Below, piece after piece: positions 5,646 to 32,549 of a stretch of DNA of 35,764 nucleotides (position 1 is the stretch's first letter; every line of letters begins with the position of its first letter). Location of the stretch: the NCBI GenBank assembly GCA_040757115.1, contig JBFLYA010000010.1, positions 1-35,764 on the forward strand, written 5' to 3'. Under the pieces are notes generated by a model that did no database searches, had not been told where the DNA came from, and saw only the letters and a list, made by a program, of their open reading frames with translations. The stretch is from a bacterium. Lineage in GTDB: Bacteria; UBA9089; CG2-30-40-21; SBAY01. The translations under genes were made by a program, and so were the position numbers.

Positions 5646-5649
5646 TCCT

Positions 5650-6075
5650 TTTCTCCTGGAAATAGGAAGTAGAGAGTAGAAAGTAGAGAGTAGAAAGTAA
5701 GGAAAGACAAGCCTTTTCTTTCTCTTTCTACCCTCTAGTATTTTCATCCTCCTATGTGCCGACTTGTCGGCATGTCCGTTCTCCTGAAAATGTAAAATGG
5801 GACGCAGATTTTCGCAGATGAACAGGATTAAAATTAATTTTTTATTATTGTATTTCTATAGTTATTTCCTTATTGTTTCTTGATGTTTTTAGTGCTTTAG
5901 TGGTTTTTCTTTAAAATCCTGTTAATCCTGTAAATCTGCGTCCTATTAATTTTCATCCCCCTTTGTGCCCACTCCCTGTAGGCATGAGCGTTTCTCCTGA
6001 AAATACTTTTTTCACCGCACAGACGCAGAGGAAACCACAGAGATATTTTTAAAATTATTTCTTCTCTGTATCTCT
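5650..6075. repeat. Cassette-like array: ~52-56-bp conserved units separated by different hairpin spacers
   Basis: Half unit TTTCTCCTGGAAAT (5650-5663); full units ATTTTCATCC...CATG..CGTT(T)CTCCTGAAAAT at 5740-5791 and 5949-6004; three unrelated repeat-rich spacers. Confidence 0.7.
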
Positions 6076-7523
6076 GGTTTATCACTTTCTTGCTTTTGAT
6101 TCCAAAAATGAATGGCAAATATCATTGCCGCAAGTGTCCAAAAAACACGGACAGTAGTATTTATTCGCAAGTTCCAGTCCCCCACTCCCTGAACTAATAT
6201 TGCAATGAAGCCCGCAAGAGAACCCAAATTAATTGCATTCAACAGATTATCTTTACCTTTAAGGTTTGAAATTCCTACCCTGATGACCATAAAACAGATG
6301 GATAAGAATAAGAGTATTCCAAAGATACCCTGTTCGGCGAAAATCAATAGGTAAATATTATGAACCGGCGGGTCCATTTTCCCCCACTGTATACCGGAAT
6401 AGTCATAATCCGACATTACAAAGGTAAAAGAATTTAAACCTGTGCCCCACCAAAAATTCGATTGTATCATCCGCCAGGCAATGTACATACATTCAACCCG
6501 GGAACTAATTGATGCTGGATCGCTAAGAATAAACTTTTGGATTATAGTCCCTGAAAATAAAAGTCCAATGACCAATGCAGAGCCCAAGATAAATATCAGT
6601 GTAATAATTCTCTGGCGACCCACTGCTGGACGTAAGAACAATATTACCATAACGGAGGTTGCGAAACTAATCCAACCACCACGAGAAAGCGTTAATATGA
6701 GTGCCATTTCTCCAAATACCAGAATGGCTATACATAGTGCCTTGTACCAAATCGAGATTCGGACAAATATCAAGATAAATGCCAGAGGTAGTAACATTAC
6801 AAGATACCCAGCAAATATATTTGGATGACCTAACATCGCCCCGACCCTGCTGGCGGTTCTCATTCCCAGTTCTTCAGTAACCATTTCGGGAGATTGACCC
6901 AGTCGCTGGAGTGGAAGGTTCAATCCACAAAAATGTTGCATCAATCCATATATTATCTGCAAGAATACCCCTATCATCAATGCCGCGACAACCAATTTTA
7001 TCTGATTACGAGTTTTTCCATAATTGACAAGATATATAAAAAGTAACAACATTTTTGTCATAGAGATAATTTCATAAGCGGCCATAGTGCGATAGGGGGA
7101 AAAAATTATGCTCCCAAGTCCCAAAATGATGAGCAATAACCAAAATATCGCTACCGCAGGTATTTGAATTGATAACCGTCTGGTGATAAAGTCTTTAATC
7201 AAATATGCATACAATATGACGAGAAACAAATCTGTTACCTCGATACGCAATGCCCATTCTCCACCAAAGTGAGGGTAATATTTCAAGAATTTAGACAAAC
7301 TCAATGGGAGAACCATGAGCAGTCCAATGAGAAAAAAAACTCGTGGGTTTCCCGAAAGTATGGCGATTACAGAAATGAATAAACTTAACAAAACAGAATA
7401 ACCGATAATTGGAGTGTTTTCAAAAGCAACAATCAATACTATGCACCCTATAATAGAAAAAAGAAAGATTAGAATTATATTGCCTGGAATTTTATGAGAA
7501 TATCGTACCTGGAGATGATTCAT
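6012..7523 (-). CDS. O-antigen ligase/Wzy-like polymerase family membrane protein
   Basis: Multiple TM helices; RVGAMLGHPNIFAGYL, TLSRGGW, GTGLNSF and PVHNIYLLIFAEQGIFG motifs. Confidence 0.85.
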   Translation of the reverse strand: MNHLQVRYSHKIPGNIILIFLFSIIGCIVLIVAFENTPIIGYSVLLSLFISVIAILSGNPRVFFLIGLLMVLPLSLSKFLKYYPHFGGEWALRIEVTDLFLVILYAYLIKDFITRRLSIQIPAVAIFWLLLIILGLGSIIFSPYRTMAAYEIISMTKMLLLFIYLVNYGKTRNQIKLVVAALMIGVFLQIIYGLMQHFCGLNLPLQRLGQSPEMVTEELGMRTASRVGAMLGHPNIFAGYLVMLLPLAFILIFVRISIWYKALCIAILVFGEMALILTLSRGGWISFATSVMVILFLRPAVGRQRIITLIFILGSALVIGLLFSGTIIQKFILSDPASISSRVECMYIAWRMIQSNFWWGTGLNSFTFVMSDYDYSGIQWGKMDPPVHNIYLLIFAEQGIFGILLFLSICFMVIRVGISNLKGKDNLLNAINLGSLAGFIAILVQGVGDWNLRINTTVRVFWTLAAMIFAIHFWNQKQESDKPEIQRRNNFKNISVVSSASVR

Positions 7524-15335: not shown

Positions 15336-16640
15336 TTACTCGTGCCTTACTTTATCCATTTCCACCTTTTCTCGTTTCCCACTTTCAGTAACAGTAGATG
15401 ATTCTTTGGATATTTCACATTTATCTTGAAGGGTTAAAGTTGGCTGAAGGGTAAAGGTATTTGGAACAGAGTAGGATAATGGTAAATTAATAAGTAAAGG
15501 AGAGGATTCCAGAAATTGTTTGGGTAAAATCTGGTGTGGGACAAATCTGATGTTATCCTCTGTCAATAAGGCATTTTTGGTATATTTACATCCTGGATTC
15601 CAGAGTAGCCATTCATCTACTCCGTGAGCATAGAGCGCATTGATTTGGTCTCTGACTTCTTTTGCCCCATAGGTGTATTCAAGTGAAAAATCCTGGAGCC
15701 AGGGTCGAATTTTACAGTTTGTCTCTTTAATCTGTTGATTTGCATCTTTTATACTTAAGAAAATAGTTTTATAAGGTTGCGAATCAGGGTTAGATATGCC
15801 ATAAGAGCCTTTGGCATAGTGAGAAGGATAGACCATTGGTGAGATAAAATCTACATATTCAGCTATCTGCTTAAATTTTTGACCTATACCAATCCCATTT
15901 TTGCAAAGCGTAGTTAAACCAAAAACATCTATGGATAAAAATGCAGCTGCGCCGAGTGTTTGTTTAGCAAATTTGATAAATTCAATAATGGTATCTGCCT
16001 GTTTTTGCGTAGAATGTTCCTCGCCATACCAACAATTACTTATCAAGCCATCTGACGGGAATCTGACATAATCGAACTGAATTTCATCAAAACCTCTCTT
16101 AATCGCATCCATAGCAATATCAACATTATATTTCCAGACCTCTTTTAGATAAGGATTGACCCAACTTTGACCTTTGTCGTCGCGCCAAACCTTACCTGAT
16201 TTATCCATAACCGCTAAATATGGTTTTTTGGTTGCCAGCCAATTATCTTTAAATACAGTAATTCTGGCAATTTTGTAGAGGCCGTATTCATCACATAAAG
16301 CGATAATTTCATCAATATTTTTAATTCGTCTCTTAACAGCCTTAATTTCTTTTGCCAATGGCACATCTACATCGTAGGCAATAATTCCATCTACTTCTTT
16401 AATGTCAATTACTACGGTATTAAGTTCAGTTTCATTGATTAAATTGAGGGTTTTTTGAAAGAGGTTTTTACTCCCTGCAACCCAACTGGTAATATGGATT
16501 CCTTTGACTTTAAATGGTGACGAGATTGCAGTAGGTGAGCCTGGCGAGGTAAATTGTGCCTCACTGTTTATAGGGCAGATAGGATATATAAGACAGATAA
16601 GGAATATTAAAATCAGTTTATTCTTCCTGTTTAAATTCAT
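15336..16640 (-). CDS. Secreted putative glycoside hydrolase (DUF4015-like)
   Basis: Signal peptide; ELNTVVIDIKEVDG, GFDEIQFDYVRFP, ISPMVYPSHY, RPWLQDF, WLLWNP. Confidence 0.8.
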   Translation of the reverse strand: MNLNRKNKLILIFLICLIYPICPINSEAQFTSPGSPTAISSPFKVKGIHITSWVAGSKNLFQKTLNLINETELNTVVIDIKEVDGIIAYDVDVPLAKEIKAVKRRIKNIDEIIALCDEYGLYKIARITVFKDNWLATKKPYLAVMDKSGKVWRDDKGQSWVNPYLKEVWKYNVDIAMDAIKRGFDEIQFDYVRFPSDGLISNCWYGEEHSTQKQADTIIEFIKFAKQTLGAAAFLSIDVFGLTTLCKNGIGIGQKFKQIAEYVDFISPMVYPSHYAKGSYGISNPDSQPYKTIFLSIKDANQQIKETNCKIRPWLQDFSLEYTYGAKEVRDQINALYAHGVDEWLLWNPGCKYTKNALLTEDNIRFVPHQILPKQFLESSPLLINLPLSYSVPNTFTLQPTLTLQDKCEISKESSTVTESGKREKVEMDKVRHE

Positions 16641-17739
16641 AGACTTCAGTTCCGCCGGCGTAAATTCCACGAACATTCAATCTAAACTCTTCAGGATTAC
16701 TGGAGGCATCGAGTGCATCTTCAAAGGTAACTAAACCATTTTGATAAAGGTAGACCAATGATTGATTAAATGATTGCATCCCATAAAATTTTCCGCCAGT
16801 AATAGCTGAGGAAATTTGAGGTGTTTTTCCTTCTTCGATTAACTTTCGGACTAACGGTGTTACGGTCAAAATTTCCACAGCCGGCACCCGACCATGACCA
16901 TCCGCTCTTGGTAATAATCGTAGAGAAACTATGCCTTTCAAGACAAGTGAGAGCTGCATCCGCACCTGGTTATGTTGATAAGGTGGGAAGAAATTAATTA
17001 TTCGTTCTACTGTTTGAGGGGCATCAATTGTGTGCATTGTTGTTAATACTAAATGTCCGGTTTCTGCGGCAGACAAGCACGCTGAGAGACTTTCTATATC
17101 ACGCATTTCACCTATCAGTATCACATCTGGATTTTGACGAACAATGTGTTTTAGTGCCTCAGCAAAGGAAAGGGTATCCATTTCTACTTCTCGTTGTTCA
17201 ATAACCGATTCCCGATCTCGATGTAGAAATTCAATTGGGTCTTCCACCGTAACGACATGAGCCCGACGAGTAGAATTTATGTGGTCAAGCATTGCGGCTA
17301 AAGTTGTAGATTTACCTGAACCCGTCGCCCCGGTAACGACAATTAATCCCCTTGGGATACTGGCTAAATCCCGAATTACCTCAGGCAAATATAACTCTTC
17401 AAAACCCGGTATCTCAAAAGGAATCATTCTAAAAACAAGTGCTGTGGTATTTCTTTGACAAAACATATTACATCTAAATCTACCAATCCCGGAGGCACTA
17501 TAGGCTAAATCCAATTCATAGCTTTCTTCAAATTTCCGTTTTTGGTCATCATTCATAATCGAATAGGCTAATTCCGAGGTTTCCGCTGGTGAAAGTCTGG
17601 GAAATACATCCACTCTATTATCTTGCATCATATAGGTTAATTTACCATCTATCCGCAAGACCGGTGGACTACCTACTTTAAGATACATATCTGAGGCTTT
17701 TTCATTTACCATTTTTCGTAAATATTCATTAACATGCAT
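16618..17739 (-). CDS. pilT: Type IV pilus retraction ATPase, PilT/PilU family
   Basis: ASDMYLKVGSPP, GATGSGKSTTLAAM, TVEDPIEF, QNPDVILIGEMRD, AAETGHLVLTTMHT, GMQSFNQSL. Confidence 0.85.
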   Translation of the reverse strand: MHVNEYLRKMVNEKASDMYLKVGSPPVLRIDGKLTYMMQDNRVDVFPRLSPAETSELAYSIMNDDQKRKFEESYELDLAYSASGIGRFRCNMFCQRNTTALVFRMIPFEIPGFEELYLPEVIRDLASIPRGLIVVTGATGSGKSTTLAAMLDHINSTRRAHVVTVEDPIEFLHRDRESVIEQREVEMDTLSFAEALKHIVRQNPDVILIGEMRDIESLSACLSAAETGHLVLTTMHTIDAPQTVERIINFFPPYQHNQVRMQLSLVLKGIVSLRLLPRADGHGRVPAVEILTVTPLVRKLIEEGKTPQISSAITGGKFYGMQSFNQSLVYLYQNGLVTFEDALDASSNPEEFRLNVRGIYAGGTEVYEFKQEE

Positions 17740-20416: not shown

Positions 20417-20461
20417 TTAATATCTCCTTATTTTTGGTAATTGGTAATTAGGGAACGGTAA

Positions 20462-21186
20462 CTAGTGCTCTGTCGCTACTCAATTGATGTCCCCCCTGGC
20501 CTAATCATTACCCACATCTTTTAGTGGACAGATTAGATAGAAATTCCAAATTCCAAGCACCAAATTCCAAATAAATTCCAAATTCCAAACACTAAATTCC
20601 AAAGTTTATATTACAACGATAAAAATTCATTTAGACTTTTCAATAATTGAAGAAAAAATTTTCTTCAATTCTATTGCCTCCTTGAAAAGCCTTTCTCCTT
20701 CTTGTTTAAATTTTTCATCGTTAGTTCCAATTATTAATCTTAACCAATAAGCAGATTCTTTTGATTCTTTACGACAAATCTTTATTCTCATCTTAAAATC
20801 TTTCGAGCCTAAAGACTCATTTGCCTCAATATAGTTTGCTCCAACTGAACCCGAAGCCCTAATTATTTGCTTTACATATTCGATATTAGTAATAGTTTTA
20901 GGTAGTTTCTTACAGAATAAAGCAACCTCTTGAGCAAATTGATAAGTTCTTTCTTCTAAATCATATTGTTTGGAATTTTGAATTTTGGTCATTGGAATTT
21001 ATTTGTATTTTGGAATTTGTGATTTGGAATTTTGCCACTCACTCCGCTCTCCTGCAATCTCTAATCTCCCCTTTATAGTTTATCCTTGCTTACCTCATCT
21101 TGTTACCCAACTTGTGGGTAACGATAAGACTCCCGCCAGCGGGGGACAACGGCCAATCAATCACTTGAATGGCGACAGAGCACTAG
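20462..21186. mobile_element. CTAG-bounded MITE (IS630/IS5-like ends) carrying a four-helix-bundle gene
   Basis: CTAGTGCTCTGTCGC / GCGACAGAGCACTAG with longer imperfect internal inverted repeats; no transposase. Confidence 0.75.
20627..20992 (-). CDS. Four helix bundle protein (TIGR02436 / 23S rRNA-IVP / Avd-like)
   Basis: DLEERTYQFA, QIIRASGSVGANYIEANE, KDFKMRIKICRKESKESAYWLRL. Confidence 0.92.
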   Translation of the reverse strand: MTKIQNSKQYDLEERTYQFAQEVALFCKKLPKTITNIEYVKQIIRASGSVGANYIEANESLGSKDFKMRIKICRKESKESAYWLRLIIGTNDEKFKQEGERLFKEAIELKKIFSSIIEKSK

Positions 21187-21238
21187 TTACCTCTTATCAG
21201 TTAACCAATTACTTACTTTTAATTTCGTGAAACCCTAT

Positions 21239-21386
21239 TTATTCTAACAGTCCAAATACCTTTACTTGCTGATTATTTCTATCTACTACATAGATATTGC
21301 CCTTATTGTCACAGGCAATACCTGCTGGTTTATTCAAACCATACCATTGTAGCACAAAACTACCCATTTTGTCAAATTTTTTTATT
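21239..21386. repeat. Direct repeat copy 1 (3' end of the giant gene)
   Basis: Matches 32403-32549 with 5 substitutions and 1 indel. Confidence 0.92.
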
Positions 21387-24300
21387 CGGTTATTGTTCGT
21401 ATCTGAGATATAAATATATCCCTGACCATTTACTACTATGCCTTCAGGCTTGTTAAACTTGCCGTCTTCCTTAATTTGCATCTGCAAAATTCCTTCTTTA
21501 TCAAACTTTAATACCCGGTCATTATTTCTATCTGCAACATAAATATTACCTTGCTCATCTACGAATATTCCTGCTGGTTTGTTTAGTAGTTGATTACCTA
21601 TTTCTATGAGTAATTCTCCTGCTTGATTAAATTTTAATATTCGATTGTTATTGGAATCTGTAACATAGATATTACCTTTTTCATCTAATGTTACCCCAGT
21701 TGGCTTGTTAAAGCCTTTACCTATCTCCATAATTAATCTTCCATCTTTATCAAACTTTACTATCCGATTGTTATTAGTATCTGCGACATAAAGATTATCT
21801 TCACTGTCTATGGCAATTCCTTCTGGATGATTTAATCCTTCATCCTGTCCAATTATCTCTATTAACCCTCCTTTTGAGTCAAATTTTAGTATCTCTCCAG
21901 TGTTGGAATGGTTAGTAACATAGATATTTTCTTCCCTGTCTAAAGCCACATAGCTGGGGTGAAATTTCCCCTTTTCATAACTAATAGTGGTTAAAAGTTC
22001 TGGTTTACCAATAAATATTACCACACTATCTTCTATTAAATTAGTTACCTTATCTTCTGTTGTTACTTTTAAGGTATAGTATGAGTCTTGAGTTAATTTT
22101 GATGTCTCCCATTTGAATTCTATCAATGAGACAGTTCCTTTAGTTAATTCTGTCCATGTAGGAGTATCTGTCCCTTGTGCATAACTTATCTTGTAATCTT
22201 CTAAATGAATATCCTCTATTGTCCCGAAAATAGTTATTGTCCCTTGAAATATCTGACAGACACCAACATTTTCCTTTGAGGGTGAAATTAGCTCTACCTT
22301 CGGTGAAGTCGTATCCAAAATCACAGTGATATTCTTTGTTGTTTCTGTATTCCCAGCCTTATCTACCCCACGGTAATAAATCGTATGTGTCCCATCTTCA
22401 TACCCGGCTAAAGTAAATATCCCGGCTCTAATCCAGGATTGATTATCAACATTGTATTCCGTATATCCTATTCCTGAGAAATTGTCAACTGAAGTTAGTG
22501 TAAACGGTGTAACTCCACTGACAATAGTCTCCTGGTAGTTTGGAATGCCAATAGAAATAGTTGTTACGGGTGGAATGATGTCAATTACCCTGACATAACT
22601 ACTGGCAATAGATATTGTCTTTCCTTCTGCTTCTGCCTGTAACGCAAGCAGATATGACTTAGCCTCCAACCCGGCTGTCTCTACTACCAGACTACTGCCA
22701 TAATTTGCACCCATAGGCAAATTAATTACTTCGGTGAATGTCTTAACTACTGCTTTTGTCTCCGGGTCAATTATAAGTTTATTAACAGTTAAACTACCCA
22801 GGTCAATATTACCTATGTTGGTTAAGGAATAATTCAAGGTAAAGGCGGCAGGACCTTCAACTACCTTCGGTTCTGCTCCAATCTGTCCCTTAATGCCCGT
22901 CCCACTTTCTAAACTGGAGAGTATCTTAAAAGAAGCAGTGGCTTGATGTATGGGTTCATTCTGGTAATAGACTATTTGAGTGACAGAATAGGTGCCCGCT
23001 GAATTTGTGAGTGTATTCCAATACGATTTTAGGTCCTTTCTTGCCTCTGGTAAAAGAATGGGAATAGGCTTTTGGTCAGTAAAAATAGGTTTTCCAACAT
23101 CATTAGTAATTGCTATTTCAACTACCAGATTCTCAAAGGTAAAATTAGGGCTCTGACTCTTTATATTACTCAGGATAGTTACATCTGTGTTAGCAGAATA
23201 AGAAATTTTGTCAGTAGCCACTGATGCATCTATCTCTAATACTGGCAAAATAGCAAAATTATCCGTGGTTTGAACTCTGGGTATTCCTACCTCACTCAAT
23301 ACTGCCTTTACCTGATAATCTGCAGATATAACATCTCTGGTGTTCCAGATAAGGGAATAGTTTCTTTGTTCTGCTGGAGTAATCCCGGCTATCGACACTG
23401 TCCCTACTTTATCTACCAAATTACCTTTTATATCAACAATTTCTATCTCAGCCATCAGGTCTTTTACCAGATTACTCAGATTAGTTACCTCTATTTGAAT
23501 ATCTACCTTTTCAAAGGCAGTATAAGTAGCTTTGTTAGTTGATGCCCTCAAACTAAATTGGGCGGGGTTAATCAGAATGGTCTTTTGATATGAATTATTG
23601 GTCTCGTCTAACTCTTCAATCTGTGAATCCGGGTCAGCCGTAACGATAATCTCACGCTCACCTGCGTTGCCCAGGGTATTCCAGATTAAGGAAACATCCT
23701 TTGTTCCTGCCAGCGGAATTGAGGATACTACTACATCACCCATATCTGAAAATCGAACCTTAACTCCGCAGACCTCTTGACCATAATTATGCACTACCGC
23801 CGTAATTACTACCTCATCGCCTTCCGTTGGGGTTGGGTTGGAGAAAGAGATACTATCTATACTCAAGTCTGGCTTATCTGGAATGGCTATATCTATGGCT
23901 TTATGAGTGATATTATTAACTTCATTAGACTCATCAATCAGGTTGTCTGGATCTACTATAACATAGATATAATTTTGCCCACTCTGGCTTAATGTATCCC
24001 AGGTTATCTGAGCAGTTGCCACCCCTCCAGCAAGAATTTGGGAAATATTGCTTACTCCTATCTCGTTGCTTCCTGGTATATCTGGATTGCCATCAAAGAA
24101 CTGAACAACCACATTATTTGCTGAAATCCCACCCTGGTTATGAACTACCGAGGTGATAACAACTGGCTTGCCTTCGGTTGGCTGGGAAGGTGAAAAGGTA
24201 ATATCATCTTTGCCTATGCTCAAATCTGGTTTTGGAACCATACCACTAATTACTGTTATAGAAACAGAAGCAAAGTTATTAGTTTCATTCATCTCTTTTA

Positions 24301-27300
24301 TCGTATCTAATGGGTCGACAACTACATAAATATTGTGTATTCCAATAGTTGACACCCAATTAATTTGAGCTGTTTCTGTAGAGTGTGGGAGAATAGTTGC
24401 TATTGTTTTTGTCCCTATTAAAATTCCACCATCCGCAGGATTTCCATCATAAAAATTCAACCAGATATCATTTGCCTCAAGCTCACCAATATTATGAATT
24501 ATAGCTGTAATTGTTAGATATTCACCTTCTATTGGGTTTGAATTTGAAAAAGATATATCTGATTCGGAAAGTGTAATATCCGGCTTCATCAATAACCATT
24601 TGATTATATTTCTGAATAATTGAATCCAATCACCCGGGGAGGCATCTAACACTCCTCCACTATCCCATGAGGCATATATCTCTTCCGCCATTAAAACTGT
24701 TTTATGTCCCTGATAGCAAATAAATACATCTTCATATTTATCAACTAATAAAGGTTGTGCACCATCTAACTCAAATTTATCGTTATCCGGATCAGCTATA
24801 CTTCCCAAATCACTCACTCCCTGGGCAAAGAAAGAGTTCTTAAAAGTAAATGGAGCGGTAAAATGTTTCTCTGTTGATGCGCTAATTCCAAAAAGAGGGA
24901 AAATTATATCATGTATCCACCACTCTGCTCCAATATCATCCTGGGCTAAGAATACTGCCCCTCCTTTATTAAGATACTCTCTTATCGCCTCTGCCTCCTG
25001 TGTAGTAATTTTATAATCATGCTCAGTAACTACAATCACCTCATAATCTTTAAGATGCTCATAGATGTAATTTTGTTCTGTTACTCCCACAATAGGCAAC
25101 TCATTACTATTTAGCCTGTTAGCCACCTCCATATAAAAGTGCCCTACTACACCTACCTTAACCTCCGGTAACACCTCTGATGGTGTAGCCTTTGCTTCTA
25201 TTGATTTTTCACTTTCATTACCTGCTTTATCTAAGGCTGTTATCCTATAAGCATATTCCTGGCCATTGGTAAGTCCAATATCCCAATACAAAGTCCCAAC
25301 TATTATAGTTGGGTTAATTTTACTCCCATCACGATATATGTTATATCCGGCTAAATCGGATTCAGTATTAGCAGTCCAATTTAAATAGACAAATTTGTTC
25401 CCTGGTGTTGCCTTTAACCCTGTTGGTGCTTGGGGTGGTGTAGTATCTAATATAATGACTATTGGTAATGAAGGTTGACTCCTATAACTATCTTTAATTG
25501 CTACCACAGTAATAGTATTTGTTCCTTCGATTAAACCTACTCCTGTAAAGGTAAATGTCCCATCATCATCAGCCATAGTTATTCCAAAAGATATACCATT
25601 AGCAAATACTTCAACCTCTATATTTGGCTCTGTTTTTCCAGAGATAGTTATAGGAGTAGTATTAACCCAGATGGGTGTCCCGGCAATGGTAGGAAAGGTA
25701 ATAGTCGGTGGATTGATGTAATAGCCTTGAGGTGTAGCACATACAGATGCAGAATGCTCACTTTCATTCCCTTCTTTATCTACTGCGGTGACAGTATAGG
25801 TATAAATTAGTCCATTAATCAATCCTGTATCTCGATAGTTTGTAGAGATAATCAACGCTGTATTTATCTTAACCCCATTTCGATATAAATTGTATCCAGC
25901 CAGATTTCCTTCAGGATTTGCATTCCAGCTCAGGTCTATCATACTATTGCCTGGAATAGCAATTAATCCGGTAGGTGCTGATATAGTAGGCGTCCCTTTG
26001 ACTGTAAGGGTTTTAGAGATGATATTATTTGCCTTATTGGATTCAACGATGCTCTTTGCTGGGTCAACTACCACATAGATATCATAAATTCCAGCCGGGA
26101 GTGGTCCATAATCAAGTGTAAGTTCAGCCTGTGCTCCACCTGGTAATAAAGCACAGGTAGATGTGCCCAATTCATAACCATTTTCCGCAGGATTTCCATC
26201 ATATAACTCTACCACAACATCCTTTGCGGCTGACTCACCCAGATTATAAACTATGACCTTAATAGCTACTACATCTCCCTCTTGAGGATTTATTGGGTTA
26301 AATGAAATGCTGGCAGTTAAATCAGGTAATGTTGCCACTGTCAGGTTCTTCTCGGCGATGTTATTTGTCTCATCCCGCTCTTTAATTTGATTCGCCGGGT
26401 CAACCTCTACAACAATCTTATGCGTCCCCGCCGTAAATGTCCCTACCAAACTCACCGTTGCACTTCCTCCATCTTCTATCTCACCAATGGCTAATGACTG
26501 ATGACTAATGACTCCTTCCACATCCTTAACCGGTGTGCCACCATAATTCCAGATAGTCGCTTTAATCGTCACAGGCTCACCTTCAACAGGCACCTCAGGT
26601 TCAAAGGTAATATCTTGCCAACTTATCGCCAGGTCTGGTGCCGAATCCTTCAATGCCCGCAATGCTAAGGCCGTAGTATAGGCATCTTGATTCCAACTGC
26701 CGTCTTCATCTTGAGCATCCAAAATATATTCTAATGTCTTCTCTAAATCCGCAATCCGCAATCCGCAATTTGCAATCGCAGAATATGCCAATGCTGTTTC
26801 CCAGATACTATTCCTAAAACTACCATCTGCATTTTGCTGGGATATAAGCCACTCAACTGCTTTATCAATTGCAGGCTCAACATAAAAATCCAGGCGATAC
26901 TGGTTAAGTACAAGAAGTACTAAAGCAGTAAGATAAATGTTACTTCCACTCTCAGAAGTAAATCCCCAGCTTCCATCTGGGTTCTGGTTAGCCGAGATGT
27001 AAGAGATGGCATTGTTAATGATGGTGGTATCAGAATAATTAGCCATACAAAGAGCTTTTAGTACTAAGATAGTATTTAGTATAGTGCTTTTAAATCCTTT
27101 ATTAATTCCCCAGCCACCATCACTATTTTGGGCTAAGGTAAGTGTACCGATAAGCGGAGTAGTCTGAGTACCAAAAGTTGCTAATGTATTTATCTTTCTT
27201 GCTAATTGACGAATACAAGTAGTATCTTGACTTGTAATCCAATTAACAACATTTATAGTTGGAGTATCTAAGAGATTAAGATAACATAAGGTATCAGCAA

Positions 27301-27484
27301 TAAGGCAAGTATCTCTAAAGAGAGTACTTGGATACACAGTCTCAGTACCCCAACAACCATTAGAACTCTGAGTATCTTTTAGCCATTGGACACCTTTATC
27401 AATTGCTACATCTTGAGCCTCTACATGGATTGGGATTAATCCACCAAAAAGTACTACAAATATTAAACATTTGAATTTACTCAT
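21239..27484 (-). CDS. Giant secreted multidomain protein: prenyltransferase/squalene-cyclase-like repeats, CARDB, FN3, Ig-like, GATase-like insert, NHL propeller
   Basis: Signal peptide from ATG 27484; QNSDGGWG-type QW repeats; PDL...VDP.N.I.E.NE.NN CARDB units; APTGL.A.PGN FN3 units; C-terminal P.GIA.D..GNIYV.D..NNRI repeats. Confidence 0.85.
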   Translation of the reverse strand: MSKFKCLIFVVLFGGLIPIHVEAQDVAIDKGVQWLKDTQSSNGCWGTETVYPSTLFRDTCLIADTLCYLNLLDTPTINVVNWITSQDTTCIRQLARKINTLATFGTQTTPLIGTLTLAQNSDGGWGINKGFKSTILNTILVLKALCMANYSDTTIINNAISYISANQNPDGSWGFTSESGSNIYLTALVLLVLNQYRLDFYVEPAIDKAVEWLISQQNADGSFRNSIWETALAYSAIANCGLRIADLEKTLEYILDAQDEDGSWNQDAYTTALALRALKDSAPDLAISWQDITFEPEVPVEGEPVTIKATIWNYGGTPVKDVEGVISHQSLAIGEIEDGGSATVSLVGTFTAGTHKIVVEVDPANQIKERDETNNIAEKNLTVATLPDLTASISFNPINPQEGDVVAIKVIVYNLGESAAKDVVVELYDGNPAENGYELGTSTCALLPGGAQAELTLDYGPLPAGIYDIYVVVDPAKSIVESNKANNIISKTLTVKGTPTISAPTGLIAIPGNSMIDLSWNANPEGNLAGYNLYRNGVKINTALIISTNYRDTGLINGLIYTYTVTAVDKEGNESEHSASVCATPQGYYINPPTITFPTIAGTPIWVNTTPITISGKTEPNIEVEVFANGISFGITMADDDGTFTFTGVGLIEGTNTITVVAIKDSYRSQPSLPIVIILDTTPPQAPTGLKATPGNKFVYLNWTANTESDLAGYNIYRDGSKINPTIIVGTLYWDIGLTNGQEYAYRITALDKAGNESEKSIEAKATPSEVLPEVKVGVVGHFYMEVANRLNSNELPIVGVTEQNYIYEHLKDYEVIVVTEHDYKITTQEAEAIREYLNKGGAVFLAQDDIGAEWWIHDIIFPLFGISASTEKHFTAPFTFKNSFFAQGVSDLGSIADPDNDKFELDGAQPLLVDKYEDVFICYQGHKTVLMAEEIYASWDSGGVLDASPGDWIQLFRNIIKWLLMKPDITLSESDISFSNSNPIEGEYLTITAIIHNIGELEANDIWLNFYDGNPADGGILIGTKTIATILPHSTETAQINWVSTIGIHNIYVVVDPLDTIKEMNETNNFASVSITVISGMVPKPDLSIGKDDITFSPSQPTEGKPVVITSVVHNQGGISANNVVVQFFDGNPDIPGSNEIGVSNISQILAGGVATAQITWDTLSQSGQNYIYVIVDPDNLIDESNEVNNITHKAIDIAIPDKPDLSIDSISFSNPTPTEGDEVVITAVVHNYGQEVCGVKVRFSDMGDVVVSSIPLAGTKDVSLIWNTLGNAGEREIIVTADPDSQIEELDETNNSYQKTILINPAQFSLRASTNKATYTAFEKVDIQIEVTNLSNLVKDLMAEIEIVDIKGNLVDKVGTVSIAGITPAEQRNYSLIWNTRDVISADYQVKAVLSEVGIPRVQTTDNFAILPVLEIDASVATDKISYSANTDVTILSNIKSQSPNFTFENLVVEIAITNDVGKPIFTDQKPIPILLPEARKDLKSYWNTLTNSAGTYSVTQIVYYQNEPIHQATASFKILSSLESGTGIKGQIGAEPKVVEGPAAFTLNYSLTNIGNIDLGSLTVNKLIIDPETKAVVKTFTEVINLPMGANYGSSLVVETAGLEAKSYLLALQAEAEGKTISIASSYVRVIDIIPPVTTISIGIPNYQETIVSGVTPFTLTSVDNFSGIGYTEYNVDNQSWIRAGIFTLAGYEDGTHTIYYRGVDKAGNTETTKNITVILDTTSPKVELISPSKENVGVCQIFQGTITIFGTIEDIHLEDYKISYAQGTDTPTWTELTKGTVSLIEFKWETSKLTQDSYYTLKVTTEDKVTNLIEDSVVIFIGKPELLTTISYEKGKFHPSYVALDREENIYVTNHSNTGEILKFDSKGGLIEIIGQDEGLNHPEGIAIDSEDNLYVADTNNNRIVKFDKDGRLIMEIGKGFNKPTGVTLDEKGNIYVTDSNNNRILKFNQAGELLIEIGNQLLNKPAGIFVDEQGNIYVADRNNDRVLKFDKEGILQMQIKEDGKFNKPEGIVVNGQGYIYISDTNNNRIKKFDKMGSFVLQWYGLNKPAGIACDNKGNIYVVDRNNQQVKVFGLLE

Positions 27485-27946
27485 CTTTCTTTTACCTTTC
27501 CCCATCTAAACTTAATATTGGTAGAATTCCTTCCTTTTTTGCCAATAATTGCTCCTCCAATACCTCTCCCGATTGTACTTAAAAGTGCAAATCCTAATAT
27601 TATCAGCCATATTTCTATGTGGAAACAAGTTCGAGAAGTACTTTCCTCTATAATAAAATCCACTACCCAAAATGCTCCTCTTATACAAGTTGCACTAAGA
27701 ATACCAAATTTCCCTTTAATTTCAGCAGAAAGAGGTATGTATGTTCTCCTTACTACCCCATCGGATAAAATTAACTATCCAGAGAATAACAGCACTTATT
27801 ATACCACCAAAAAGAAATCCAAAGACAAAAAATACTATACTAAAACAAATAGACAATAAAAGATTAGGTGTACCCCCTCCTGTATAAGTAAGAGCCCAAC
27901 TTGTCAATCCTCCAATTAATATAGCGATATAAATCCATATCTTCAT
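27481..27946 (-). pseudogene. Frameshifted small multi-TM membrane protein (candidate degenerate immunity gene)
   Basis: The 74-aa hydrophobic ORF overlaps a second open frame (from ~27775) that continues into the 60-aa ORF; its TGA overlaps the next ATG (ATGA). Confidence 0.55.
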
Positions 27947-27976
27947 TTTACCTTATATTTCATCATGTATATCATC

Positions 27977-28966
27977 TTAAAAGTAAAGATCTAAAAATTT
28001 CTTATTACTCGCATCTATTCGGGCTATCCCTTCTCTATATCTTAATTCTGAATGTATTTCTTTATCCATGTCTTTAGTTTTCACCTCCACAACCCATGTT
28101 AATCTTGTCTCAGTATTAAACTTATCATAGGGAGGAATCATAAGATAAGTATAATTTGGTGACACAATATATAATTTTGCTGACTTAACCTTTAAGACTT
28201 TATGCTTCAATACCCATTCAAAAAATCTCTTTGTTTTAGCAATCGCTTGTTTTTTTGTCACCTTAACATTTAAAGGACAATTTGAACTTATTAGCCACCA
28301 AGGACTTTTAGAATAGAACAATAACTCACCTGTATAGATATCTACTTTTATTATAATATCAACACTCCCATGAACTTGATCTCTAAACTCATATCCTTCT
28401 CTGTTTTTTACCCATCTAATTTTCCATGCATAAAAAGGAGAACTATGAAGACTATCTGTCCTTATTTTTTTTATCTCTTTTAACACAGCATCCTTGGGGC
28501 TACCTATTAAAGATAAATATTCCTCTGCTTTTTGCAAGGCTTCATTTTGAGAAATAGGATTCTTATTATATAAAAGAGATTTTTGTTTCTGAGAATAAGA
28601 AAAACCAACTATCATCTTTTTATATCTGCTTATAGTTAAACCTACCCGTGTTTTATCATTTTCCCATACTATATAATATTCATAAGGATTAGTTAAACTC
28701 CTAATTTTGTTACATACTGGTGTAGCATTAATATGAATCCCTAATTTTTTCAACAAATCACTTCCCGATGCAATAATATTATCTTCTCTAACAGGTGGAA
28801 ATGGTTCATAACTTTCTCTAATCTCTAAGTTATTTAACCAACCATTGATATAAAGAGAAGCAATGAAATATCCAATAGGCCCATAATAGTAAACAGGATA
28901 TACTATTATTAATAATATAAATATCCATATCATAGTTCCTAATCTCTTCTTTTTAACTTCATTCAT
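27977..28966 (-). CDS. Membrane-anchored PepSY/YcdB-YcdC-like repeat protein
   Basis: N-terminal TM; two units ISQNEALQKAEEYL...IKVDIYTGEL and VTKKQAIAK...RLTWVV...ARIDA. Confidence 0.6.
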   Translation of the reverse strand: MNEVKKKRLGTMIWIFILLIIVYPVYYYGPIGYFIASLYINGWLNNLEIRESYEPFPPVREDNIIASGSDLLKKLGIHINATPVCNKIRSLTNPYEYYIVWENDKTRVGLTISRYKKMIVGFSYSQKQKSLLYNKNPISQNEALQKAEEYLSLIGSPKDAVLKEIKKIRTDSLHSSPFYAWKIRWVKNREGYEFRDQVHGSVDIIIKVDIYTGELLFYSKSPWWLISSNCPLNVKVTKKQAIAKTKRFFEWVLKHKVLKVKSAKLYIVSPNYTYLMIPPYDKFNTETRLTWVVEVKTKDMDKEIHSELRYREGIARIDASNKKFLDLYF

Positions 28967-28980
28967 AAAATATCCTCTTA

Positions 28981-31900
28981 CTAAGGAATAGATGGGTCCA
29001 AAACTGTATTAATATCGCCAATATGTTCCCTATTAGTAAGGAGTACTTCCATAGATTCGCCTGCTGTGAAACTACTAATCATTAACTCCCAAAAATTTAA
29101 TGCATTTATCCATGATTTCCCAATAATAATTCCTTTATATCCAATAAATATTTCCTTACCTTCTTCAGATTCATTTATCCCCAAAACCTTAGCAAACTCC
29201 CTACCTTTTTTGAAAGTATGACATCCACTCAAGAATACTATTTTAAAATCTCCAGATACATCATCTGGACTAATATCTTGCTCTCCATCTTTTGGATCAA
29301 GAATAAGATTTCCTGTTACTCCTCCTCCATGTCCCATAAAGTAGAAAACGTCTTTATGTGTTCTATTTTGAGCTAATAGCGTATTAAAATCATTTTTAGT
29401 AAAAGTCTCTCCATAGACTACATTATATCCTCGAGCATATAATCCATCTGCAACATCATAGATATGTTCTATCCCCCAACCACAAATCCTCTTAATCCAT
29501 CCCCCAAATCCTCTCTCAGGTTTTCCCAGACACAGTATTGCCCATGCCCTGCTCATATCTACTTTAAAATCCTTTGGGGTAGTTCCTGTAAGGTAATGTA
29601 CCATATATCCTGGGATATATGTATCATTCGTTCCTCCAGCTAACTCACCTGAAATTATATATCCACCTGCACCTGTTTCCAAATCCATAGCTATGTATCC
29701 TACTCCATTCCAATTATTAACTGAAATATTTGTTTGAGGTATGGTTATTGTTCTACCTGCATTTACATAATTCCATAATTCTTCCTTTACTGTATCAGAG
29801 ACGCCAAGTTGCGGTATAATTTCTCCTGCATTATTACTGTTGAAATTATGTATAGTTATTCCTCTTTGATTTGCTATTCGAAGTAATTTCACTGCTGAAA
29901 TTGAAGATAAGCCATAACATTCCTCAAGTAATGCATGTTCCCAATAAGAAGCCTCCATTCCACTTATCCTCATAAATTGTAACTGCTTACTAAAGTTTCC
30001 ATCATCTACAAAAGGAGTAACAATTATTCTATCAATATCCATAGATAGCTTACTAATCTCTATGCTCTTGGGAATCTGAAATAAATAAGTTGTATTGAGT
30101 TCAAATGCCATTGTGCCTTCAGAGATTCCTTTAGTTTTAACCACATGCATTAATTGTTCTAATAATGTATAAGATTTATCAAGTTTTTGAAAGTAAAATA
30201 GAAGGGTGTCGTAAAGTATCTCACCTACAAAATCATCTCTTTTCTCATTTTTGATATTTAGGATACCAAACAAGTCTTTAGCATCTAAAAACTTATCTAT
30301 CCGTTGATCTATAAGTTGTGACGGTATGTTTTGCATATTTAAACCAATAGCATAGTAACTTCCTCCAGTTATCTCTTTAGTAGTAATATCAATTAAACCT
30401 TCTGGTGATACAAATTGGATAGTGAAGTTTTGAGTAGTTCCCATCTTTACTTCTAAACCAACAATTTTAGTTTCTCCTTCCACCCGTAACACAGGTTTTA
30501 AATTCGTTAGGTAAGCAGGGGCATAATATAATCCACCATACTCTTTAGCTATCTTTTCATCATCAGAAGCTGCTGGGATGTATGATAATGTTATTCTTTT
30601 TCCTGCTAATTCAGGGAATCTTACGGTATAATCTATCCCACCAACCTTAAAACTTATCTTATGTCTTAACTCACCTGGAATTTCAGAGTATTTATCCAAA
30701 ACTGCAAGAGTATCATAAGCAAGTGAATCAGGTAAAATACCAAATTCTTCTTTAATTATCCCCTTTAATCTTAAAATGTCTACTAATTTCTTATCTGGCA
30801 TGTTAGCATTAAGATAATCAACAAGTTGATTAAAATATTCTAATACTGGTGAAATAGTCTTGGTCCCACTGAGATATGCATTTGTATCAAACTGTAATTG
30901 TAAAGATAAGTCTATATCTTCCTTAGTGGTATACTGTTTAAAACTTGGGTCAAGTGAAACCCACATTTTATTTCCTCTTGAAATACTTACTCCTTCATCT
31001 GGCAGATAAGGAATATAAATCTCTACCCAAACATGTTCTATTTTTAGCTTTGAAATCTCACCACCACTTATACCTAAAGCAGATGGTATTCCACCACTGG
31101 CAAACATATCACCACAGGTTTTTTTATCTTTCACTCCCACCCAATTCATTGCCTGTTCGATGGGTATTTCAATCGTGCCATAGACATAGCGGGCGGGGAT
31201 GTTGGCAGCTCGATAGAGAGCAATTAATAAAGATGCTAAATCAAAGTCATTGCCTGCTTTTTCCCATAAGGTTTCTTGACTCCCTTTGAGTGAACCATAG
31301 TAAGGTTCGTAGTCAAAATTATTGCGGACATATTCGTAGATTAATACAGGATTGCTTTTTAAGGTATTGGTGGCTAATTGGCGGATTTCAGGGGTTATCT
31401 GAACATCAATGGTTTCTGATAAATCAGCTTCCGTAGGTAAATTACTGATGGGAGACTGTTCCTCTATCGCCTGAGCTAGCACAAAGGTATCTGGGAAACC
31501 AGCAGAGGCGTATAAGGGATGTGAGATGTGGGATGTGGGATGTGGATTGCGGACTGCGGATTGGAGTTCAGGCTTTAGCCTTTCATTCTGCCCTCTGCCC
31601 TCTGCCTTCTGATATCTGTCTACTGACTTCTGCCCACTATCTACTTTTATCCTTGGTGGCTTTGGCGTTAACTTCGGTGCCATACGATGCGGTAATTTAT
31701 TGGGGTCTAATGGTTTTGGTTTGGGGCGATACTGTGCCTTCTCAATAAACTCTTGCAGTTCCTTTATCTTCGTTTTTTGCTCTGTGTTATTAGCTGAAAT
31801 AGCCACACTTAACCTGCTCTGAAGATTAGCAAAATTTTCCTCATACTGTTTCACAAAATCATAATGCCGCTGAAGTATTTTATCTGGCAGTTTCTTATCC

Positions 31901-32199
31901 TTCAAAAATTCCTCAGTCTCTTTAAACTCTCTCCTGAGTTCTTTATCCAGCTCTTTGAGTTCTTCCTCTTTAACTCTCAGCTCCTCAACCCTTATCTCTT
32001 CACTTTTCACTAACTCATCAATTGCCTCTGTCCACTTCTCAGCTGTAGTCTTTTCTTTTTTCTGACTTTTGACTTCTGACTTCTGGCTTCTTTCCTCAGT
32101 CGCCGCGTAAACAAAATTATTCCCTCCCACCGCAGTATAAGTAAAACAAATTAAGACTACCCAGATAATCGGTTTTAACTTTTTAGTCCAAGTTTGCAT
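28981..32199 (-). CDS. Secreted transglutaminase-like protein with C-terminal caspase-fold (clan CD-like) domain
   Basis: Signal peptide; YYGSLKGSQETL..KAGNDFDLASLLIALYRAANIPARYV, EHVWVE, WVSLDPSFK; linker GYIISGELAGG; C-terminal FYFMGHG...VFLSGCHT. Confidence 0.8.
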   Translation of the reverse strand: MQTWTKKLKPIIWVVLICFTYTAVGGNNFVYAATEERSQKSEVKSQKKEKTTAEKWTEAIDELVKSEEIRVEELRVKEEELKELDKELRREFKETEEFLKDKKLPDKILQRHYDFVKQYEENFANLQSRLSVAISANNTEQKTKIKELQEFIEKAQYRPKPKPLDPNKLPHRMAPKLTPKPPRIKVDSGQKSVDRYQKAEGRGQNERLKPELQSAVRNPHPTSHISHPLYASAGFPDTFVLAQAIEEQSPISNLPTEADLSETIDVQITPEIRQLATNTLKSNPVLIYEYVRNNFDYEPYYGSLKGSQETLWEKAGNDFDLASLLIALYRAANIPARYVYGTIEIPIEQAMNWVGVKDKKTCGDMFASGGIPSALGISGGEISKLKIEHVWVEIYIPYLPDEGVSISRGNKMWVSLDPSFKQYTTKEDIDLSLQLQFDTNAYLSGTKTISPVLEYFNQLVDYLNANMPDKKLVDILRLKGIIKEEFGILPDSLAYDTLAVLDKYSEIPGELRHKISFKVGGIDYTVRFPELAGKRITLSYIPAASDDEKIAKEYGGLYYAPAYLTNLKPVLRVEGETKIVGLEVKMGTTQNFTIQFVSPEGLIDITTKEITGGSYYAIGLNMQNIPSQLIDQRIDKFLDAKDLFGILNIKNEKRDDFVGEILYDTLLFYFQKLDKSYTLLEQLMHVVKTKGISEGTMAFELNTTYLFQIPKSIEISKLSMDIDRIIVTPFVDDGNFSKQLQFMRISGMEASYWEHALLEECYGLSSISAVKLLRIANQRGITIHNFNSNNAGEIIPQLGVSDTVKEELWNYVNAGRTITIPQTNISVNNWNGVGYIAMDLETGAGGYIISGELAGGTNDTYIPGYMVHYLTGTTPKDFKVDMSRAWAILCLGKPERGFGGWIKRICGWGIEHIYDVADGLYARGYNVVYGETFTKNDFNTLLAQNRTHKDVFYFMGHGGGVTGNLILDPKDGEQDISPDDVSGDFKIVFLSGCHTFKKGREFAKVLGINESEEGKEIFIGYKGIIIGKSWINALNFWELMISSFTAGESMEVLLTNREHIGDINTVLDPSIP

Positions 32200-32402
32200 T
32201 TTTTTAGCACTCCTTTTATCAAAATTATACCATAAATTCCCTTAAAGTTAATAGAAAATTAAGATTATAAAATGGACACGGTGGTTATTTTATCATAAGT
32301 AGTGCCGGGAGCTAACCAGATATCTACCTCATCCATCAGGACAACAACCTGTTTTTTTGGAACAGCAAGTTCTTAACAGACGCTTACAATACCTTCTTTT
32401 AC

Positions 32403-32549
32403 TTATTCTAACAATCCAAATACCTTCACCTGCTGATTATTTCTATCTACTACATAGATATTGCCCTTATTGTTACAGGCAATACCTGCTGGTTTATTCA
32501 ACCCATACCATTGTAGCACAAAACTACCCATTTTGTCAAATTTTTTATT
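32403..32549. repeat. Direct repeat copy 2 (orphan 3' end of an NHL gene abutting the ftsQ stop)
   Basis: Encodes KFDKMGSFVLQWYGLNKPAGIACNNKGNIYVVDRNNQQVKVFGLLE*, like the giant-protein C-terminus. Confidence 0.92.
32510..32539 (-). promoter_or_regulatory. Sigma70-like promoter inside the direct repeat (second copy at 21346-21375)
   Basis: TTGACA-18 bp-TACAAT with TG extension. Confidence 0.45.

Follow-up and report, generated by a model that had tools for sequence, protein, structure and literature searches.

A four-gene module lies between the cell-division genes ftsQ and ftsA/ftsZ, downstream of murB and ddl, on a 35,764-nucleotide (nt) stretch of DNA from a bacterium of the GTDB lineage UBA9089 (contig JBFLYA010000010.1 of assembly GCA_040757115.1), the whole of which is referred to here as the window. 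Its features are collected in Table 1. The leading gene encodes a 1072-residue protein that the initial annotation had read as a candidate polymorphic toxin, and the positions given there for the open reading frame (ORF), the linker and the two presumed catalytic residues proved exact. The N-terminus of the protein, MQTWTKKLKPIIWVVLICFTYTAVGGNNFVYA|AT, resembles a Sec signal peptide by eye, and a hydrophobic 19-mer begins within the first 35 residues in 96 of 103 full-length homologs of its conserved portion, hereafter the trunk. The trunk ends in the Gly-rich stretch GYIAMDLETGAGGYIISGELAGG (residues 834-856, last base 29632), beyond which a tip of 216 residues carries the motifs FYFMGHG (residues 952-958, with the His957 codon at 29329-29331) and VFLSGCHT (residues 988-995, with the Cys993 codon at 29221-29223). 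On the same strand and separated from the toxin ORF by a gap of 14 nt, a 329-residue ORF follows. Two membrane-anchored downstream genes had been proposed, and only this first one is supported as real, because the 74-residue ORF behind it and a further ORF of 60 residues (27481..27663), which overlaps the start of the giant gene, have no homolog among 77 related loci.

Table 1. Coordinates of the module and its parts in the window
Feature	Position	Strand	Basis
Putative toxin gene, 1072 residues: signal peptide, helical N-region, probably inactive transglutaminase-like core, novel module, junction, predicted clan CD tip	28981..32199	-	
Predicted Sec signal peptide, residues ~1-32	32104..32199	-	by-eye reading
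Transglutaminase-like core, residues 269-418, without nucleophile Cys (GNDFD; His389 and Asp417 kept)	30946..31395	-	Pfam
Conserved post-transglutaminase trunk module, residues 420-856	29632..30942	-	
Junction motif, residues 834-856, breakpoint between trunk and variable tip	29632..29700	-	
Tip, residues 857-1072 (216 residues), predicted clan CD (caspase-like) peptidase domain	28984..29631	-	
Candidate immunity gene (family D2), 329 residues: N-terminal membrane helix and PepSY-like repeats	27977..28966	-	
74-residue ORF with two hydrophobic helices, doubtful as a gene	27722..27946	-	
Giant partner, 2088 residues: signal peptide, alpha/alpha-toroid, CARDB x5, fn3/Big, NHL propeller	21239..27505	-	Pfam
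Direct repeat R2, in the spacer between ftsQ and the toxin gene, upstream boundary of the module	32400..32546	.	
Direct repeat R1, in the terminal (3') part of the giant gene, marking the module's downstream edge	21236..21382	.	

The sole Pfam match of the 1072-residue protein is Transglut_core (residues 269-418, E 9.1e-16, 58.5 bits against a cut-off of 23), a domain that recurs in all 48 homolog representatives scanned with Pfam; neither the query nor these 48 representatives gave an RHS match. At the nucleophile position of the transglutaminase motif GxCxxFA, aligned by eye, the window protein has Asp318. Across the 134 trunks in which the motif could be located, this position is occupied by Asp in 86, Ala in 44, Asn in three and Ser in one, and by Cys in none; the remaining 46 of the 180 trunk pieces, truncated ones among them, gave no such motif. 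The transglutaminase His is kept in 149 and the Asp in 147 of the 180 pieces. Because the nucleophile Cys was never found in the 134 trunks, the domain is probably a binder and not an enzyme. Behind it, residues 420-856 form a 437-residue module with a confidently predicted fold (predicted local distance difference test score, pLDDT, 87.6; predicted template modeling score, pTM, 0.86) and no convincing relative among solved structures when compared with the Protein Data Bank (PDB).

This trunk belongs to a large family whose members part ways at the junction. Of 8000 candidates scored against residues 250-855, at least 1415 proteins match at E<=1e-3, and the top 120 share 37-50% identity with the query; at least 575 genomic relatives were found in stretches of species-representative genomes, from which the 77 loci were kept. 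When the whole query is compared with the best 120 homologs by BLAST, the alignment ends around residue 850-870 (mostly ~856) in most of them, leaving tails of ~90-370 residues unaligned; some 15, Geotalea and Trichlorobacter included, align on to residue ~1040-1053. Of the 120 other proteins compared, 118 keep the junction motif itself (family consensus GYIxxDPxTGAGAYMISGGLAGG), and majority-residue conservation stands at 0.55-0.73 over the 100 columns before it versus 0.09-0.28 after it. The 115 tails of at least 60 residues fall into 35 BLAST clusters; with the genomic loci included, 177 distinct tails fall into 70 clusters, most of them without a Pfam match. Trunk homologs were also seen on contigs labelled Hydrothermarchaeota or Candidatus Pyrohabitans, that is, archaea (loci L011, L030 and L074).

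Where tips can be named, they mostly carry familiar enzymatic domains. C-terminal Pfam matches among the 48 representatives comprise NlpC/P60, CHAP, Peptidase_M15_2, M15_3, M23 (E 1.5e-26), SLT, DUF6973 and, below its cut-off, PLA2G12. A Pfam scan of 20 further tails from the loci added Ntox16 above its cut-off (E 1.6e-12), DUF6310 in two tails, NlpC/P60 in two of the orphan cassettes described below, and a sub-threshold Tox-ART-HYD1 (E 0.0038). Ntox16 is listed, in the toxin-domain passages of Zhang et al. (2012; PMC3482391), as a toxin domain of RHS, type VI secretion system (T6SS) and Photorhabdus virulence cassette (PVC) polymorphic toxins. Tail length goes with a particular kind of neighbor: short tails (<160 residues) are hydrophobic-helix bundles in 60 of 79 cases, with multi-helix membrane proteins as neighbors in 31 of 39, and long tails are mostly soluble, with neighbors bearing a single N-terminal helix in 19 of 32.

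The distribution of these tails over the trunks is that of an exchangeable part. Among trunk pairs, 2% share a tail cluster at 30-40% trunk identity versus 98% at 80-90%, with clear exceptions: five Undibacterium trunks that are 66-75% identical bear five different tail clusters. Another exception is a pair of tandem copies (L015) whose trunks are 92% identical and whose tails belong to different clusters: across most of the trunk their DNA agrees at 90-100% of positions, over its last 400 nt at 75-84%, and from the first base past the junction identity drops to ~30-50%. When 122 trunks are placed on a FastTree tree, 66 changes are needed to account for the 70 tail labels. The window's own tip type, T2, occupies two separately supported sets of rows on that tree, with three changes, and may have had a single origin followed by many replacements. 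On the strength of these alignments, tips are exchanged through recombination at the junction.

Relatives also hold the tips in a second form, as orphan cassettes in which a trunk fragment is joined to a tip. A genome of the same phylum (G018) has 16 trunk matches, many of which cover only residues ~654-856 in ORFs of 340-435 residues. One 9.3-kb locus in it (L092; G018:C82, 1-9261) contains four ORFs that each combine a trunk fragment with a new tip of ~200 residues, and behind each of them lies a gene whose product has hydrophobic helices. Two more cassettes, each likewise with a membrane-protein gene behind it, lie in L094 (G034:C54, 627-4404) and one in L095, and in the public loci L074, L028 and L013 they stand downstream of a full-length toxin gene. 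The cassette ORFs have no signal-like N-terminus, and the trunk fragments of several genomes begin at about residue 654, a shared start that may reflect a domain boundary or a preferred recombination site. The archaea-labelled contig of L074 carries an orphan cassette together with a complete toxin gene and a giant gene.

The tip in the window is recognizable by structure. Sequence comparison says little about it: no Pfam model reaches E<=10 over the last 220 residues, their sole NCBIfam match at E<=1 is negligible (E 0.072, 11.4 bits), a search with the tip sequence found only seven matching proteins among 1.84 billion representatives, and a profile search among longer proteins returned only three proteins, all with the transglutaminase trunk. 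The AlphaFold model of the tip (pLDDT 77.8, pTM 0.79; first 25 residues disordered) gave 16 Foldseek matches in the PDB at E<=1e-3, all of them clan CD and including SAVED-CHAT, caspase-1, -4 and -11, separase, gingipain R and metacaspase. VIA-align applied to the Foldseek list placed clan CD enzymes in all 50 of the rows listed, with scores of 15.2 for SAVED-CHAT (8tl0_B; root-mean-square deviation 3.2, 168 aligned), 14.4 for RgpB (4ief_D), 13.5 for legumain (4n6o_A) and 12.7 for caspase-8 and MALT1 (3h11_B and 8v4x_F). In the model, Gly956-His957 follows a strand at residues 949-955 (model residues 97-103), and Cys993 follows another at 987-991 (model residues 135-139). Both Gly956-His957 and Cys993 are invariant in an alignment of 16 sequences, made up of the window, ten locus tails and five short proteins from the search of representatives. 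This invariance and the junction kept in 118 of 120 proteins put these features far beyond chance. With no Pfam match and no meaningful NCBIfam match, the modeled tip is a structural member of clan CD at the level of the clan, outside the named families C14, C13, C11, C25 and CHAT.

A clan CD domain need not be a weapon. Here it could instead serve processing or transpeptidation, in the manner of releasing peptidases or sortase-like clan CD enzymes, by cutting the trunk or the giant protein or attaching one of them at the surface; the structural matches include legumain-type ligases, cleavage could take place at the Gly-rich junction, and according to the caspase-related passages of Zhang et al. 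(2012; PMC3482391) most caspase-like domains of polymorphic toxins are releasing peptidases. The same passages, however, assign the C-terminal-most position, which the domain holds here, to the toxin versions. Moreover, the domain sits in the slot that other trunks fill with NlpC/P60, M23 or Ntox16 tips, has nothing downstream of it to release, and is paired with serpin-like or PepSY-like proteins. A processing role is thus quite unlikely, and the tip is better read as the payload of a polymorphic toxin.

If the tip is a toxin, the gene behind it should change with the tip. For this comparison, 73 trunk-tail rows were drawn from the window and the loci, and their downstream ORFs were grouped into 90 clusters; three of the 73 rows, which have no downstream ORF besides the giant, were left out. 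Pairs were formed between different loci with trunks less than 60% identical, and the giant-protein cluster was ignored. A downstream cluster was shared by 19 of 83 same-tail pairs versus 10 of 2270 different-tail pairs, and none of 500 label shuffles reached 19. Eight of the larger downstream families show no detectable kinship with one another (hhalign probability <=7.9%), and their Pfam content ranges over a PD40 propeller, LolA-like, bacterial PH, YARHG and DUF5953 domains, or nothing. The idea that the downstream proteins of ~300 residues with a single helix form one conserved component was rejected, as hhalign shows no homology among them.

Behind the T2 tip, three sets of genes occur. 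Family D2, to which the 329-residue protein of the window belongs, follows it in five loci with seven genes (the window, L009, both copies of L019, L041 and two copies of L044); D4 together with D5 follows it in L007, L009 and L012; and D10 does so in L004 and L049. D2 proteins begin with a signal, lipoprotein-like or membrane-helix N-terminus and continue in repeats that match Pfam weakly, as PepSY in three of seven members (best E 3.5e-4) and as DUF4901 in three of seven. D2 shows no homology to the other downstream families. The window protein itself matches PepSY at E 0.013 and DUF4901 at E 2.4e-4 (21.7 bits against a cut-off of 27). D4 is a family of serpin-like lipoproteins, with a Pfam Serpin match in all three members (best E 2.3e-6); compared with the PDB, its profile finds only chains of PAI-1 (E 0.04-0.5), over the hinge, the reactive loop and the C-terminal strands. 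PepSY is an inhibitor of the protease-propeptide type, and caspases are inhibited by some serpins. Finding two unrelated families of inhibitor-like proteins next to one protease-like tip is the pattern to be expected of a toxic protease and its antidote. In the Geobacteraceae T2 loci, a small gene for a Peptidase_M23 protein (E 7.1e-25) comes next after that for the serpin-like lipoprotein (L007, 9247-10960; L009, 10171-11868; L012, 9238-11067). Elsewhere, a DUF5953 protein comes next after a DUF6310 tip in two distant loci (L051, 3831-4568 with 4584-7308; L080, 3292-4014 with 4209-5750), and these two domains may be a toxin-immunity pair.

The giant protein is a further recurrent element. Its alpha/alpha toroid is of the prenyltransferase/SQHop-cyclase/TED-like type by Pfam, and its N-terminal 300 residues match ORFs in 46 of the 77 related loci, where the toxin-immunity pair has the giant gene on its downstream side in most lineages, and on its upstream side in Proteobacteria and Myxococcota. 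Eight such partner proteins were scanned: five have the alpha/alpha toroid, seven have arrays of CARDB, CarboxypepD_reg, MG2, PKD or Big domains, and several have FG-GAP repeats. In one metagenomic homolog (P0017, 1759 residues) the trunk is fused to DUF6973 and to a SQHop-cyclase/TED-like toroid. The synteny in 46 of 77 loci and this fusion mark the link between trunk and giant protein as conserved. To judge from synteny, the giant protein probably serves surface display or targeting.

Such a neighbor invites a comparison with the VARTIG loci of Thermococcales, which likewise pair a large Ig-domain protein with variable downstream genes and for which passages of their description (PMC8416519) raise recognition as one hypothesis. 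By analogy, the variable tips and their membrane partners could mediate surface recognition or kin discrimination, that is, self/non-self discrimination or adhesion together with the giant Ig-like protein; the conserved giant CARDB/MG2/toroid neighbor and the short tails, which with their partners amount to hypervariable membrane proteins, would suit such a role. Many tips, however, are enzymes of intact catalytic families, such as NlpC/P60 and the M23 domain noted above, the window tip keeps its invariant His/Cys dyad beside inhibitor-like proteins, and the transglutaminase domain has 0 occurrences in those same passages on VARTIG (PMC8416519). Recognition in place of toxicity is therefore very improbable, and a toxin-immunity function agrees better with the enzymatic tips.

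The setting of the module in the window raises a different question, that of whom its enzymes serve. The four genes interrupt an otherwise contiguous ftsQ-ftsA-ftsZ series (window 20417-32547) and are flanked by 147-nt direct repeats that are 96% identical and spaced 11164 nt apart. In a genome of the same genus (G001), the flanks are 97-98% identical at the nucleotide level, ftsQ adjoins ftsA, a single hybrid copy of the repeat remains and the module is missing; ftsQ likewise adjoins ftsA in three genomes of the same family. Being bounded by repeats and missing from the same site in G001, the module is accessory, and it looks to have been gained or lost recently via recombination between the repeats. 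No match to MurB, Ddl or FtsQ turned up in the 77 other loci. With this result and the module missing from the four related genomes, the idea that it is regularly tied to cell-wall genes was rejected.

These facts bear on the proposal that the proteins are self-directed enzymes of envelope remodeling, comparable to autolysins or endolysins in joining one binding module to interchangeable catalytic domains, that act on the producer's own wall or surface, perhaps with the giant protein, with the downstream genes as their regulators or inhibitors. Most of the identified tips are indeed peptidoglycan hydrolases, the inactive transglutaminase-like core could bind wall peptides, the module of the window sits inside a division and cell-wall gene cluster, and no dedicated export machine is encoded. 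Against this, the placement in the cell-wall cluster is unconserved across the 77 loci and the insertion is missing from the four related genomes. Presence is also patchy, with trunk matches at E<=1e-10 in 14 of 41 genomes (the window's own and 40 relatives). Finally, the signal-less orphans, the tandem copies that differ only past the junction and the Ntox16 tip fit toxins. Self-directed remodeling is on balance unlikely, and the polymorphic-toxin interpretation is retained below.

The surroundings hold further genes. A 23S rRNA intervening-sequence protein (PF05635, E 8.2e-14; 20627-20992, reverse strand) is encoded between ftsA and the giant gene, and its gene is also missing at this site in the same-genus genome. 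After ftsZ come genes for a T2SSE secretion ATPase (type II/IV, E 2.7e-41; 16618-17739, reverse strand) and for a DUF4015 glycosyl hydrolase-like protein (15336-16676, reverse strand).

The locus is in our judgment likely to be a polymorphic toxin-immunity module, built on an RHS-free trunk and armed with a clan CD protease as payload, and the trunk proteins at large are probably a family of bacterial competition toxins. The initial annotation fared well in this respect: a conserved trunk with variable C-termini, a next gene that varies with the tip, a caspase fold in the tip and a giant CARDB protein as neighbor had all been proposed from the window, and each was borne out among the homologs or in the model, with orphan cassettes in relatives completing the polymorphic-toxin architecture. 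Several observations nevertheless weigh against this interpretation. The downstream cluster recurs in only 19 of the 83 same-tip pairs, and the three gene sets behind T2 weaken a one-to-one pairing, although they fit subtypes of the tip. The PepSY and DUF4901 matches of the 329-residue protein lie below the Pfam cut-offs, as does the PLA2G12 (lipid) match in the tip slot. No above-cut-off Pfam tip is an enzyme acting in the cytoplasm; the identified tips act on the cell wall, Ntox16 and the DUFs excepted, so that part of the family may serve to remodel the producer's own wall. The short hydrophobic tails could be anchors instead of toxins. The module encodes no outer-membrane translocator. The window's own genome yielded one full copy and no orphan cassette. 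The prevalence of releasing peptidases among caspase-like domains, cited above, belongs on the same side.

How such a toxin might work can be outlined step by step. The genome of the window has three Omp85 and seven secretin matches, so that the host is diderm, and a Sec substrate therefore first arrives in the periplasm; we infer that the protein goes on beyond the periplasm, is cut at the junction and is toxic, that its neighbor confers immunity, and that the giant protein has the role given below. Sec would export the 1072-residue protein into the diderm periplasm, where the conserved trunk would act as a carrier whose Cys-less transglutaminase domain binds instead of cutting. The motif GYIxxDPxTGAGAYMISGGLAGG would be both the recombination breakpoint and the likely point of release. 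The clan CD payload, through His957 and Cys993, would then cleave envelope or periplasmic proteins of a competitor, the membrane-anchored PepSY-like protein of 329 residues would shield the producer, and the giant alpha/alpha-toroid/CARDB/NHL protein would be a partner in surface display or targeting. A wider and distinctly tentative proposal, which we regard as possible and hold with less than even confidence, is that the inactive-transglutaminase trunk, the 437-residue module and the giant partner constitute an unrecognized Sec-dependent platform for delivering envelope-targeting polymorphic toxins, independent of the type V, VI and VII secretion systems (T5SS, T6SS and T7SS) and of Rhs. Such a platform would extend across Desulfobacterota, Nitrospirota, Pseudomonadota, Myxococcota and candidate phyla, possibly also archaea, and its 437-residue module would dock at the surface or translocate the tip into the periplasm of a neighbor.

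Much of this picture is already known from other systems, namely the toxin-immunity logic, the class of the tip and the occurrence of an inactive transglutaminase in such toxins; what appears new is the make-up of the carrier, its partner gene, and how large and widespread the family is. With CdiA-CT/CdiI and Rhs-CT/RhsI, the locus shares a conserved body, a sharp junction, a variable tip, a downstream partner gene and orphan arrays. The junction motifs of CdiA and Rhs are VENN or PxxxxDPxGL. Here, by contrast, the trunk is unrelated, TpsB, a T6SS and a YD shell are lacking, and the payloads identified to date are mainly envelope-targeting. In that last respect they recall the periplasm-acting T6SS effectors Tae, Tge and Tle, which pair with periplasmic immunity proteins: amidases, muramidase/SLT, M23 and possibly lipase activities recur on both sides, as do membrane- or lipid-anchored immunity candidates, although the proteins described here carry a Sec signal, whereas those effectors are loaded onto the T6SS.

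The closest precedent is a report of 2012 in which an inactive transglutaminase domain follows the signal peptide of polymorphic toxins, "always" with RHS repeats behind it, and anchoring through peptide binding is suggested (Zhang et al., 2012; PMC3482391). These Sec-dependent RHS toxins resemble the present family in their signal peptide, their triad-deficient transglutaminase-like domain, for which an anchoring and not a catalytic role was proposed, and their diverse C-terminal toxins. They differ in that RHS is missing here and that the 437-residue module, a junction motif of its own and the giant partner are present, the two transglutaminase domains being compared by description. The initial claim of a new Sec-exported class not built on Rhs accordingly holds in part: no RHS was found in the 48 homologs, whereas the class is less unprecedented than first claimed because inactive transglutaminases in Sec-dependent toxins had been reported in 2012. 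The tip likewise has a counterpart in Tox-Caspase, which in the relevant passages of the same paper (PMC3482391) shares the clan CD fold, the His/Cys dyad and the C-terminal-most position. Its listed immunity protein in those passages is Imm36, in contrast to the PepSY-like or serpin-like neighbors here, and the window tip matches no Pfam or NCBIfam model. The VARTIG loci of Thermococcales, as far as passages of PMC8416519 describe them, have a comparable polymorphic-toxin-like layout, with a large CARDB/TEP-like protein beside hypervariable genes; there, however, the large Ig protein is itself hypervariable, a transglutaminase trunk is lacking and the hosts are archaea only. A full-text literature search, outside which lay a 2019 mBio survey of archaeal polymorphic toxins and the supplements of PMC3482391, found no description of the RHS-free trunk, its junction motif or the giant partner.

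If the interpretation is correct, a large family of polymorphic toxins on a new type of carrier would be added to those already described, in hosts that include Geobacteraceae, Nitrospirota, syntrophs and candidate phyla, where interbacterial weapons have been little studied. Its tip slot would be a source of uncharacterized envelope-acting domains, each encoded beside a candidate inhibitor, as exemplified by a clan CD protease next to serpin-like or PepSY-like proteins. The giant partner and the 437-residue module, in turn, raise the question of how a Sec-exported toxin would reach another cell.

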